DNA of 64,000 bases from Candidatus Magasanikiibacteriota bacterium. GTDB lineage: Bacteria; Patescibacteriota; Patescibacteriia; Magasanikbacterales; UBA922. Positions within the stretch are counted from its first letter, which is position 1. Each line of letters starts with the position of its first letter. The stretch covers positions 156,544 to 220,543 of the forward strand of contig WJJZ01000010.1 in NCBI GenBank assembly GCA_014729395.1, in the 5' to 3' direction. The position numbers and the translations under genes are program-made. Shown in pieces: positions 52,717 through 55,320 of this stretch. The notes under the pieces were generated by a model that was not told where the DNA came from, made no database searches, and saw only the letters and a list, made by a program, of their open reading frames with translations.

Positions 52717-53262
52717 TTATTTTAATTCAACTTTTCCACCCGCTTCTTCAATCTTCTTTTTCATTTCTTCCGCTTCTTCTTTGGCTACATCTTCTTTTAC
52801 AGCTTTTGGAGCACCATCTACCAATGCTTTTGCGTCAGCCAATCCCAAACCGGTAATTTCTTTAACAGCCTTGATTACAGCTATTTTTGTGTCGCCAGCG
52901 TCTGTTAACTCAACAGTGAATTCAGTTTTTTCCTCTGCAGCGCCTTCACCACCGGCCTCAGCACCACCGGAGGCCATCATCATTGCCGGGGCGGCTGCGC
53001 TTACGCCAAATTTTTCTTCCAAAATTTTGACGAGCTCTGCTAAGTCTAGAACAGACATTTTTTCAATCTCTTCTACAAGAGATTTGAACTTAGCCGGAAC
53101 TTCAACCTCTTTACTCTCTTCTTTTGTTTCTTCAGCTACTTTAGTTTCAGCTTCAGGTTTTTTTTCTTCTTTAGAAGCTTCTTGTTTACCCTTCGCATCA
53201 GTCGAAGGAGTTTTTGTCTCCTTTTCCGCTTTTTCTTCAGCGGCTTTTTTTTCTTCTGCCAT
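52717..53262 (-). CDS. rplL: Ribosomal protein bL12 (L7/L12) with an about 50-aa Lys/Glu-rich N-terminal extension
   Basis: Canonical NTD ([23 protein letters not shown]), Ala/Gly hinge, CTD ([32 protein letters not shown]). Confidence 0.85.
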
Positions 53263-53348: not shown

Positions 53349-53870
53349 TTAAGCTTTATTTTCTTTTATACCGTTCAAAACATTTACCAAACCTCTCAAA
53401 TTACCGGCCAGTACATTTACAAAACCGGATACCGGTGCATTTATTGAACCAACAACCTTGGCATATAATTCTTCTTTACTAGGAAGTTTGGAAAGCTCCA
53501 GCACTTTAGCCTCATCAATGAAATCATTTTCCAAAATTCCACCAAATATTTTTACCACATCATGATCTTTGGCAAATTTTGCAATAAGCTGGGCAGGAGC
53601 AACCTCATCTTCTTTCCCAAGAAAAACTCCAACCCCACCTTCAAAAGCCTTGGTATCAACCTCCATTCCTACACTGTCCAACGCTCTTTTAAGTAATGTT
53701 TTTTTTGTTGCGGTACAATCCACATTTTGTTCCCGACAAATTCCGCGCAGCTCTTCCATTTCAGACACCTTTAGACCCTGAAAATTGGCAAACACGGTTG
53801 ATTTGGCTTGTTGCATGTCTTGAGTAAGGCTTTTTACAGCCTCTTCTTTTTGTACTCTGGTTTTAGCCAT
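53349..53870 (-). CDS. rplJ: Ribosomal protein uL10
   Basis: Typical L10 sequence and rplJ-rplL order; 173 aa. Confidence 0.85.
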   Translation of the reverse strand: MAKTRVQKEEAVKSLTQDMQQAKSTVFANFQGLKVSEMEELRGICREQNVDCTATKKTLLKRALDSVGMEVDTKAFEGGVGVFLGKEDEVAPAQLIAKFAKDHDVVKIFGGILENDFIDEAKVLELSKLPSKEELYAKVVGSINAPVSGFVNVLAGNLRGLVNVLNGIKENKA

Positions 53871-54228
53871 AATATATAATTTTAGGCTTATTTACAATAA
53901 AAAACTGTGGTTTTCACCACAGACCTTGAAGTTTCGATAAAAATCGACCTAGAAGACAAAAAATCTTCTTTCTACCTCGGTAGCGTATTTAATCCTTTTT
54001 TGGAAGCTACTGTCTGCGGTTTTTAGTGTTTACATAATAACAAAATTAAAAAATCATGTCAATACCTTGACAAATTAGCTAAAATGTGATAAAAATCAAT
54101 ATCTTTCGCCCTTTTCTATTACAAAATAAGGAGGATTGATGATATAAAGATAAAAATAATTTAACCGGCAGAAGGAAAGATCTTTCACCAACGTGACAAC
54201 TCCTTCTGTACAACAGAAGGAGAAAGTC

Positions 54229-54546
54229 ATGAAAGTGAAGGACAAGTGCGAAGAGTGCGGACGCTGGGTACCGGTCGACGAGATGGCCTACTGGGGACGG
54301 CCAACCTGCAAGGACTGCCTGACACTCTCCATGAGTACCACCACAGACATCTGCGGTGGTTGCGGGAAAGAATTCCCGGAGAGGATGCTCGTATGGGCTC
54401 GTTCTGCAGATGAGTTCCACATCTGCGGAGAGCTGTGTCGGATCGACGGCTGCTGCCTGCGTGTCTGTACCGGCTCGGGTCAATGGTTCTGCCCCCGGTG
54501 CCACCAAAAACACCGGGATGAACTCGAGGCTCGCACCCACTACTGA
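54229..54546 (+). CDS. Cysteine-rich (13 Cys, four CxxC pairs) small protein encoded in an about 60% GC island
   Basis: SD AAGGAGA 7 nt upstream of ATG 54229; CEECG, CKDC, CGGCG, CPRC motifs; strong terminator directly downstream; G/C-ending codon usage unlike the rest of the window. Confidence 0.5.
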   Translation: MKVKDKCEECGRWVPVDEMAYWGRPTCKDCLTLSMSTTTDICGGCGKEFPERMLVWARSADEFHICGELCRIDGCCLRVCTGSGQWFCPRCHQKHRDELEARTHY

Positions 54547-54555
54547 CACACTGCC

Positions 54556-54595
54556 CCGATTCCACCACAGGAATCGGGGTTTTTATTTTTTTTTA
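54556..54595 (+). terminator. Rho-independent terminator
   Basis: CCCCGATTCC-ACCACA-GGAATCGGGG hairpin followed by a long T-run. Confidence 0.7.
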
Positions 54596-54643
54596 TCATT
54601 CCAGCTTTTGACATACTGGATTTCCATGCTATACTTATATAGT

Positions 54644-54880
54644 ATGTCAGAAGAAATTTTAGACAAGATACTTACTAAAGTAGTCAACATCGAAGACAAG
54701 ATGGATAATCTTGCAACCAAGGAAGATTTACGAGTAGCCAAAGATGAAATTATAGGTGATGTTGATAGATTTGTAAAACTTCATGAAACCTTAGACCATG
54801 AACTTGTTGCTCTGCGTAATAAATATGACCGTTTGGAAGAACGCATCAAAAAACTGGAAACTGGAATGGTCAGTACTTAA
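54644..54880 (+). CDS. Small coiled-coil protein (78 aa), hypothetical
   Basis: AT-rich ORF MSEEILDKILTKVVNIEDKMDNLATKEDL...; TTGACA 54609-54614 and TATACT 54630-54635 only 8 nt upstream of the ATG (possibly leaderless); the ORF-track 174-aa version is an artefact of read-through of the GC island. Confidence 0.4.
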   Translation: MSEEILDKILTKVVNIEDKMDNLATKEDLRVAKDEIIGDVDRFVKLHETLDHELVALRNKYDRLEERIKKLETGMVST

Positions 54881-55042: not shown

Positions 55043-55114
55043 GGCCCGTTCGTCTAGTGGTTAGGACTCCAGGTTTTCATCCTGGCAACAGGGGTTCGAT
55101 TCCCCTACGGGCTG
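55043..55114 (+). tRNA. tRNA-Glu (anticodon TTC)
   Basis: Acceptor GGCCCGT/ACGGGCT, D arm GTCT-AGTGGTTAGGAC, anticodon stem CCAGG/CCTGG with loop TTTTCAT, T arm AGGGG-TTCGATT-CCCCT, discriminator G. Confidence 0.8.
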
Positions 55115-55293
55115 CAAACGCAAAAGTGTCAACTACAGTTGGTACTTTTGTATTTGTGAATACCCTTGAGGGAATCGAACTGGGGATGGTAAGGGGCGTA
55201 GCCCCTTACTTGTGGAGGAAAGCCTACGAAAACCCGAAGGTTTTCGTGGGAGCGACTGAAAGGAGCGAGTGAGATTTCCCCTACGGGCTGCAA
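55115..55293 (+). other. Highly structured about 160-nt insert followed by a 19-nt repeat of the tRNA-Glu 3' end (GATTTCCCCTACGGGCTGCA)
   Basis: Three clean hairpins (CAAAAGT...ACTTTTG; GGGGCGTAGCCCC; CGAAAACCCGAAGGTTTTCG) and a duplicated tRNA 3' terminus. Confidence 0.55.
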
Positions 55294-55294
55294 A

Positions 55295-55320
55295 AAAAAG
55301 AGGTAATCAACCTCTTTTTA
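55295..55320. terminator. Bidirectional rho-independent terminator
   Basis: A8-AAGAGGT-AATCA-ACCTCTT-T5. Confidence 0.6.

Follow-up and report, generated by a model that had tools for sequence, protein, structure and literature searches.

A probable orphan gene of atypical composition, with zinc-ribbon-like motifs, between the L10 leader and tRNA-Glu of a Magasanikbacteria chromosome

Introduction

How does a single small gene in an AT-rich bacterial chromosome come to have a base composition so unlike its surroundings? This question is raised by a 64-kb stretch of contig WJJZ01000010.1 (64,000 nucleotides, nt; hereafter, the window), in which an open reading frame (ORF) for a protein of 105 amino acids (aa) with 13 cysteines has a guanine-plus-cytosine (GC) content of 0.591, against 0.364 for the window as a whole. 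A preliminary description of the sequence had offered recent horizontal acquisition, mobile cargo or a chimeric assembly as explanations. Here, we favor another reading, in which we place moderate confidence: the ORF is a true protein-coding gene of small size, restricted to its lineage, that occupies a variable slot of a Magasanikbacteria chromosome. We describe it as a compositionally atypical ORFan with zinc-ribbon-like motifs, the product of which is probably zinc-binding.

A GC-Rich Island Coinciding With One Coding Sequence

The GC content of all 318-nt segments across the 64 kb averages 0.364 (standard deviation 0.051). The maximum, 0.607 in the segment starting at 54240, lies 4.7 standard deviations above this mean, and outside the island just two 318-nt spots exceed 0.50 (0.503 and 0.522). 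This sliding-window scan bears out the mini-island of about 60% GC that had been described (59.1% in the ORF itself), while the figure of about 34% given for its surroundings has to be corrected to the measured 0.364. Segment by segment, GC content is 0.21 in the promoter region, 0.23 in the first 60 nt of the 5' untranslated region (UTR), 0.47 in the hairpin part of the UTR, 0.59 in the coding sequence (CDS), 0.60 from the stop codon to the terminator stem and 0.26 in the next 62 nt. Since the values change at these borders, the switch from AT to GC coincides with the coding region, in agreement with its original placing between the ATG and the terminator.

The shift extends to all three codon positions (GC1, 0.55; GC2, 0.52; GC3, 0.71). 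In 11 neighboring genes GC3 is 0.27-0.47 and GC2 0.26-0.42, and both codon and amino-acid usage of the ORF are far from theirs, so that the G/C-ending codons noted earlier are a real feature and the atypical composition and codon usage expected of a genomic island are both present. The expression signals around the ORF look native, as had been proposed: a Shine-Dalgarno (SD) sequence, GGAG (54219-54222), stands 6 nt before the ATG, and an intrinsic terminator follows, with its stem-loop at 54553-54580 and a T-run up to about 54595. The promoter-like site upstream is sigma-70-like, and the rplJ promoter (54062..54034, minus strand) adjoins it back-to-back.

Several signals are specific to the ORF frame. 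TGY (Cys) codons number 13 in this frame and 1-5 in the other five, GC content is 3-periodic with its peak at codon position 3 of the same frame (shuffle p = 0.004), and CxxC pairs exceed the permutation expectation (p = 0.04). All 13 cysteines and the four CxxC pairs of the preliminary description (CEEC, CKDC, CGGC, and CPRC) were found, and a knuckle motif, CxxCG[RK]x[VF]P, is present twice. The long antisense ORFs of the island (156 and 113 aa), rightly called spurious at the outset, have neither GC3 periodicity (0.55 and 0.51) nor an SD sequence, and no Pfam match was obtained for them or for the alternative frames. The 105-aa ORF is thus most probably protein-coding.

A Variable Slot Between rplJ and tRNA-Glu

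Relatives of rplJ belong to Candidatus Magasanikbacteria and other Patescibacteria, with best identities of 73% among GTDB genomes and 71% among Joint Genome Institute (JGI) metagenomes, and identify the host as a member of Candidatus Magasanikbacteria (candidate phyla radiation, CPR, or Patescibacteria). Because the best rplJ identity is 73%, no close relative has been sampled, and the genome of the window is itself absent from the protein collection searched. The locus is a core chromosomal region; further neighbors encode hemerythrin, a histidine kinase, TsaD, uridine kinase, PRPP synthetase, and DnaE, and no integrase or transposase was found among the neighboring genes.

The 105-aa protein has no family match in Pfam, PHROGs, NCBIfam, PADLOC, or PDB sequences, and a search of 5.8 billion clusters retrieved no relative. 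Viral contigs and JGI metagenome contigs yielded none either. An exhaustive phmmer search of 1.84 billion representatives gave no genuine relative; its lone hit, a 2977-aa low-complexity repeat protein (E = 4e-4), was judged spurious. No relative of the gene was found in phage and plasmid records by tblastn or blastn, and it occurs in none of 160 related loci searched by both programs, the closest of which is the relative with just 73% rplJ identity. Most simply, homologs are missing because the gene diverges rapidly and no close relative has been sampled.

Of 123 related loci, 49 have a transfer RNA gene, tRNA-Glu, at most 2.5 kb upstream of rplJ, and both orientations of it occur. Among the nearest relatives, several (L001, L004, L082, L029, and L003) have the two only 170-340 base pairs (bp) apart; in the window the distance is 1173 bp, and the roughly 890 bp extra consist of the GC-rich gene and a gene for a 78-aa coiled-coil protein. 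The island can therefore be regarded as extra DNA with respect to several of the nearest sampled relatives. The tRNA also flips its orientation relative to rplJ (about 21 '+' and about 28 '-' among the 49 loci), and GC-rich islands occur about once per 10 kb of variable DNA upstream of rplJ. Together, these two observations suggest a recombination-prone neighborhood.

We counted as a GC island any tract of 200 nt or longer that exceeded the GC content of its locus by 0.15 or more and lay no more than 1.2 kb upstream of rplJ, after removal of duplicate rplJ sequences. Such an island occupies the slot in 25 of the 107 loci with distinct rplJ. Island density within 1.2 kb upstream is 0.11-0.13 per 600-bp bin, compared with 0.03-0.10 farther upstream and 0-0.05 downstream. 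Most slot islands bear no relationship to one another or to the island of the window. The slot genes lie in either orientation, and their products include a membrane protein, a cold-shock-domain-like protein, and Cys-rich proteins (Table 1). The preliminary description had allowed that many similarly GC-rich genes would make the island unremarkable, and this applies in part: there are none elsewhere in the window, but they recur across the clade. Three slot islands with GC contents of 0.60-0.67 (L002, L015, and L020) lack a convincing long ORF and match no Rfam family. The fold of the L002 island is more stable than that of shuffled sequences (z = -4.1 and -3.1), and all three could be decayed genes or unknown RNAs.

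One group of slot genes forms an orphan family with six clusters in the 5.8 billion (L055, L058, L059, L063, P0045 in L164, and P0046 in L165). Its proteins, of 145-187 aa, share the conserved motif HR(A/N/R)G-K-x4-6-W-x-RP-x-TR. The five members with an rplJ flank (L055, L058, L059, L063, and L164) occupy the same slot, divergent from rplJ, and the sixth (L165) is on a 1.7-kb contig without rplJ. Protein identity within the family is 32-59% where the rplJ proteins are 84-95% identical, and it largely follows rplJ identity. GC3 is 0.69-0.83 in the family and 0.26-0.50 in neighboring genes. Fourfold sites are saturated: about half of them differ at conserved residues, and they are still G/C. 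This pattern indicates a vertically inherited, fast-evolving gene with maintained GC-richness. Because the family has kept its GC3 through divergence, GC-richness is no proof of recent transfer. By analogy, the window orphan could have resided in the slot for a long time while diverging rapidly. With rplJ identities of 73% or less, a homolog diverging as fast as this family would be undetectable.

Origin of the Gene

On the reading that we favor, the slot between the L10 leader and tRNA-Glu is structurally plastic, with about one quarter of related genomes holding small, fast-evolving, unrelated GC-rich genes there, and the gene would have entered it by insertion or replacement. The most serious alternative is recent horizontal gene transfer (HGT), in which a complete small gene came from a high-GC donor (a bacterium, phage, or plasmid) and has not been ameliorated. 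Such a transfer would account for the shift of GC1, GC2, and GC3 alike, which makes the amino-acid composition itself GC-type, for the absence of the gene from several of the nearest sampled relatives, and for the adjoining tRNA gene with an att-like duplication of its 3' end (att, attachment site). GC-richer members of the clade (L038, 0.56; L068, 0.54; L072, 0.56) are potential donors. Both HGT and genomic islands have been reported to occur frequently in Patescibacteria, for the most part inside the phylum (PMC12455944).

We nevertheless consider recent HGT unlikely. No donor or homolog emerged from any collection searched, and the GC-rich tract ends with the CDS and terminator, upstream of which promoter and UTR are AT-rich and of native type. 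Mobility genes and flanking repeats are missing. With the nearest relatives at most 73% identical in rplJ, 'recent' cannot be inferred, and the analogous slot family keeps its GC-richness over long divergence. The mobile cargo that had been suggested fares no better: the vicinity lacks an integrase or transposase as well as attC, and the island is not flanked by direct repeats (the repeats around it are AT-rich, chance-level matches only). On inspection, the 3' side of the ORF shows a plain GC stem and T-run without the GTTRRRY core of an integron cassette. A likeness of the terminator to the tRNA T-arm (12/15) was judged to be due to chance.

A more far-reaching version of the slot hypothesis, which we put forward only tentatively, is that the slot is a dedicated cradle for small, very fast-evolving genes in which GC-richness is actively maintained against the AT bias. 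Selection could then act on codons or messenger RNA (mRNA), for example in favor of transcripts or codon sets that remain functional under attack on AU-rich RNAs or on particular tRNAs. Alternatively, the conserved flanks could anchor a recombination hot spot with GC-biased gene conversion. If this were true, the 13-Cys gene with its locked start (see below) would be a slot resident and no random import.

The Cysteine-Rich Product

The cysteines of the 105-aa protein are at positions 7, 10, 27, 30, 42, 45, 66, 70, 75, 76, 80, 88, and 91. The N-terminal pattern C7-x2-C10-x16-C27-x2-C30 falls within the spacing of two-knuckle zinc ribbons (about 10-25 residues), and residues 7-30 most likely form a zinc ribbon. 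Residues 42-91 contain nine Cys in the arrangement CxxC-x20-CxxxC-x4-CC-x3-C-x7-CxxC-H, and these together with the His most likely bind two further metal ions. Three metal sites may thus reasonably be expected in this 105-aa protein. The product is hydrophilic, soluble, and Cys-rich, with no enzymatic motif; it would act by binding nucleic acid or a partner protein, not as an enzyme.

The profile searches recommended in the preliminary description (zinc-ribbon, rubredoxin-like, and metallothionein-like) brought no family to its cut-off. Zn_ribbon_8, Zn_ribbon_9, zf-dskA_traR, and Zn_ribbon_NOB1 scored 8.7-10.8 bits, against Pfam cut-offs of 24.9-34.4. Rubredoxins are defined by CxxCG...CPxCG about 29 residues apart and bacterial metallothioneins by an SmtA-type Cys/His cluster; neither family was listed in Pfam at E <= 10 or in NCBIfam at E <= 1. 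PHD fingers of the C4HC3 type follow C-x2-C-x(9-21)-C-x(2-4)-C-x(4-5)-H-x2-C-x(12-46)-C-x2-C. The observed C-terminal spacing, C42-x2-C45-x20-C66-x3-C70-x4-C75C76-x3-C80-x7-C88-x2-C91, departs from this, in that ligand 5 is not His and two spacings are out of range, and there was no Pfam PHD match.

A Predicted Hairpin Over the Translation Start

The start of the GC-rich gene is predicted to lie within a long, three-tier hairpin (Table 1). Its inner stem (CUCCUUCUGU/ACAGAAGGAG) buries the SD sequence, the middle stem (CGUGAC/GUCAUG) buries the AUG, and the outer stem pairs the UTR with codons 3-5. The fold of 54160-54235 has an energy of -27.3 kcal/mol (z = -6.5). Opening the SD sequence and AUG would cost 16.1 kcal/mol at 37 C, the highest value among 17 window genes (1.0-11.6 for the other 16), and the unpaired probability of the SD sequence is about 0. 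The hairpin arms lie on both sides of the AT-to-GC junction.

The first 60 nt of the 5' UTR hold a two-codon mini-ORF with a strong SD sequence (AAGGAGG-attg-ATG ATA TAA, 54139-54147). In addition, the upstream copy of the 8-mer that contains the SD sequence, CAGAAGGA, can pair with the anti-SD UCCUUCUG (54201-54208), and this pairing appears when SD sequence and AUG are forced open, which suggests a kinetic or factor-dependent switch. GC-rich genes that occupy the slot in other genomes have none of these leader features. Under the mechanism that we propose, translation would be off by default, with the SD sequence and start codon locked in the 24-bp hairpin, and would need an opening event. 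RNase cleavage could provide it, as could a helicase, a factor that binds RNA, or use of the upstream CAGAAGGA copy during transcription. We infer a regulatory role of the hairpin from the folding model; a ribosome-binding site locked this strongly would be a concrete regulatory element that can be tested.

Type I toxin-antitoxin systems are characterized by a small hydrophobic membrane toxin, by sequestration of the SD sequence, and by an antisense RNA in cis or in trans. The 13-Cys gene shares the sequestered SD sequence, but its product is hydrophilic and has no PADLOC match; the opposite strand has only a consensus promoter-like site (54777..54749).

Coding Gene or By-Product

A number of points weigh against reading the ORF as a genuine gene of this slot. 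The protein has no homologs from which conservation, dN/dS, or covariation could be derived, and a single-sequence AlphaFold2 model, built with no alignment, is of low confidence (predicted local distance difference test, pLDDT, 47.6). No zinc-finger profile reached its cut-off, the best being zf_UBZ with 19.1 bits against 25.6, and the best PDB match in phmmer is to the last knuckle of the ING4/ING5 PHD fingers (G-x-WFCPRC) at E = 0.26. Hairpin and promoter are predictions only, and the SD-locking hairpin is not shared by other slot island genes. Enrichment of islands in the slot is modest, about 2-fold over other variable DNA upstream. In DNA of 59% GC, ORF length alone is not significant, and two antisense frames are open too. 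Finally, RNA of the CDS shows somewhat more structure than shuffled sequences do (z = -2.6 to -2.9).

Some of these points would be expected if the island were foreign or decayed DNA and the ORF a by-product of its GC-richness, non-functional or merely transcribed. GC-rich DNA contains few stop codons, which would leave the two antisense frames open as well. Islands of relatives L002, L015, L020, and L108 are without a convincing long ORF, and the translation start is buried in a hairpin. On the other hand, Cys codons are enriched 3- to 13-fold in a single frame, the GC3 periodicity falls in that same frame, the CxxC knuckles come in pairs with the spacing of zinc ribbons, and the CxxCG[RK]x[VF]P motif is present twice. 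The SD spacing is correct, and the ORF spans exactly the interval from SD sequence to terminator. We therefore regard a non-functional ORF as improbable.

GC-rich islands of AT-rich genomes are usually RNAs, and the island could likewise be a structured non-coding RNA gene, given the fold of the CDS sense strand, the promoter and terminator around the region, and the slot islands of some relatives that have no ORF. This seems very improbable to us in view of the frame-specific coding signatures. In addition, the island has no sequence similarity to any other island, and its modest fold z-scores are in much the same range as those of GC-rich island genes of relatives that are clearly coding; across the CDS and 13 other islands, such scores did not discriminate non-coding RNA. 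Rfam 15 contained no family over 54165-54546, at the gathering threshold or at E <= 10, beyond chance-level hits, and the terminator scored 22.8 bits with the NsiR1 model (gathering threshold, 39). A whole-region fold z of -7.3 was discarded as an artefact of shuffling the AT-rich flanks together with the GC-rich core.

An assembly chimera, with reads of a GC-rich organism spliced into the contig, would match the abrupt composition switch and a source that is probably a metagenome assembly, but it is exceedingly improbable, as it needs two chimeric joints, separated by 400 bp, with the original genome resuming after the second, while the arms of the 24-bp hairpin straddle the 5' joint, the SD sequence, start, stop, and terminator are in register, and related loci with distinct rplJ from many projects (25 of 107) show GC islands in the slot.

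Other Features of the Locus

The coordinates of the features are collected in Table 1. The L7/L12 protein of the window (encoded by rplL) has 181 aa, with a Lys/Glu-rich N-terminal extension of about 55 residues; that of L164 has 134 aa. The gene for the 78-aa coiled-coil protein, downstream of the GC-rich gene, has a near-consensus promoter with an extended -10 element (TTGACA-16-TG-TATACT). This promoter ends 8 nt before the ATG at 54644, and the mRNA is thus probably leaderless. An inverted repeat (54605-54617/54641-54653, 92% complementary) would mask the start codon of this gene in read-through transcripts of the GC-rich gene. The 78-aa protein has 40 homologs in Patescibacteria/Magasanikbacteria, and its family is native to the clade. 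As a candidate partner of the 13-Cys gene it was rejected, the three homolog contexts examined being unrelated and without a Cys-rich neighbor.

Table 1. Coordinates and properties of features in the window and in related loci.
Feature	Sequence	Position	Strand	Basis or remark
rplL	Window	52717-53262	-	ORF
rplJ	Window	53349-53870	-	ORF
Ribosomal protein L10 leader	Window	53889..54037	-	Rfam RF00557, 60.4 bits (gathering 44); upstream of rplJ
Promoter-like site of GC-rich gene	Window	54067..54096	+	TTGACA, ~17-18 nt, TG-n-TAAAAA/AAAAAT; consensus scan, 10/12 matches
Predicted 5' UTR	Window	54105..54228	+	Transcription start inferred from promoter-like site
Upstream copy of SD-containing 8-mer, CAGAAGGA	Window	54169..54176	+	Sequence; candidate anti-anti-SD
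Three-tier 24-bp hairpin	Window	54181..54242	+	Predicted fold; covers SD 54219-54222, AUG 54229-54231, codons 3-5
CDS, 105-aa 13-Cys orphan protein	Window	54229..54546	+	Frame-specific coding signals; ATG at 54229, stop 54544-54546
Intrinsic terminator	Window	54553..54595	+	GCCCCGATTCC-ACCACA-GGAATCGGGGT, then T-run; 11 pairs, 7 G-C
78-aa coiled-coil gene	Window	54644..54880	+	Native composition; own promoter 54608-54635; nearly leaderless
tRNA-Glu(UUC)	Window	55043..55115	+	ARAGORN and Rfam; other border of variable slot
tRNA-Glu-linked element	Window	55116-55296	+	Conserved, structured
tRNA-Glu-linked element	L012	4978-5157		Copy
tRNA-Glu-linked element	L030	5358-5530	-	Copy
tRNA-Glu-linked element	L127	4900-5124	-	Copy
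Orphan family member	L055	5181-5687	-	
Orphan family member	L063	5273-5761	-	GC3 0.83 (island gene)
Orphan family member	L059	4786-5340	-	
Orphan family member	L058	3160-3687	-	
Orphan family member	L164	3001-3534	+	
Orphan family member	L165	122-559	+	
Slot island	L012			96-aa membrane protein; GC3 0.82
Slot island	L030			133-aa protein; GC3 0.93
Slot island	L079			Cold-shock-domain-like protein; sequence inspection only
Slot island	L075	7123-7524		Two-zinc-ribbon protein
Slot island	L075			Cys-rich protein
Slot island	L021			Cys-rich protein
Slot island	L002	5390-5740		No convincing long ORF
Slot island	L015	5180-5597		No convincing long ORF
Slot island	L020	5525-5815		No convincing long ORF

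Following tRNA-Glu we observed a conserved structured element of about 130 nt. It starts with GGGGAATCGAAC, the reverse complement of the T-arm, contains the invariant sequences GAGGAAAG, GAAAACCCGAAGGTTT, and CGAGTGAGAT, and closes with 19 nt that repeat the 3' end of the tRNA in direct orientation (TTCCCCTACGGGCTGCAAA, at 55100 and 55276). In RNAalifold, the four sequences of the element form 34 pairs, 8 of them with compensatory changes, and the distal tRNA-end copy matches the tRNA of its own genome in three of the four. A covariance model run over 165 loci found the element in those four distinct loci and in L099, a copy of L012, so that its distribution is patchy. It belongs to no Rfam family, and a search of viral contigs did not recover it. 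What looked like a third tRNA-end copy in L030 proved to be a scaffold-gap duplication. Possible identities of the element are a small mobile element that targets tRNA genes, a scar left by an att site, and a new RNA linked to tRNA.

Implications and Comparison With Known Systems

Taken alone, the 13-Cys gene is one more orphan small gene of the CPR, of little consequence. The clade-wide pattern is of more interest: one slot beside a core ribosomal operon repeatedly holds GC-rich, fast-diverging small genes, and in at least one family the foreign-looking composition appears to be inherited and maintained within AT-rich, streamlined genomes. This pattern challenges the use of GC deviation as a routine marker of recent HGT in such genomes, and it points to selection at the codon or mRNA level or to local recombination bias.

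Among known proteins, the product most resembles small zinc-ribbon and double-zinc-ribbon proteins (Zn_ribbon_8, zf-dskA_traR, and DZR-type), with which it shares N-terminal CxxC knuckles 16 residues apart, the twofold CxxCG[RK]x[VF]P motif, small size, solubility, and the lack of an enzymatic motif. It differs from them in having 13 Cys instead of 4 or 8, in profile scores below cut-off, and in a C-terminal 9-Cys arrangement that fits no described family. The C-terminal CC-x3-C-x7(GQWF)-CPRC-H can be aligned with the final knuckle of PHD fingers, and with at least 8 ligands in about 50 residues this region could form a cross-brace as in PHD/RING fingers. However, its spacings do not fit the consensus of PHD or RING fingers, Pfam gave a score for neither of these domains, and the PDB match mentioned above is not significant.

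In its leader, the gene recalls start-sequestered mRNAs, such as those of the type I toxins hok and tisB, IS10 with its fold-back inhibition, and RNase III-activated phage mRNAs. Here too, the SD sequence and AUG are predicted to lie in a long, stable 5' hairpin, and an upstream sequence is able to compete for the anti-SD. The analogy is one of mechanism only; the product is hydrophilic and Cys-rich and no small membrane toxin.

With HGT islets and ORFans beside tRNA genes, the locus has in common its atypical composition, its absence from several of the nearest relatives, an adjacent tRNA, and its orphan status. It is unlike them in comprising one gene only, without integrase, repeats, or donor, and in a GC-rich tract confined to the CDS. 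It is also unlike them in its setting, a clade-wide slot that holds GC-rich genes whose composition has been kept over long divergence.

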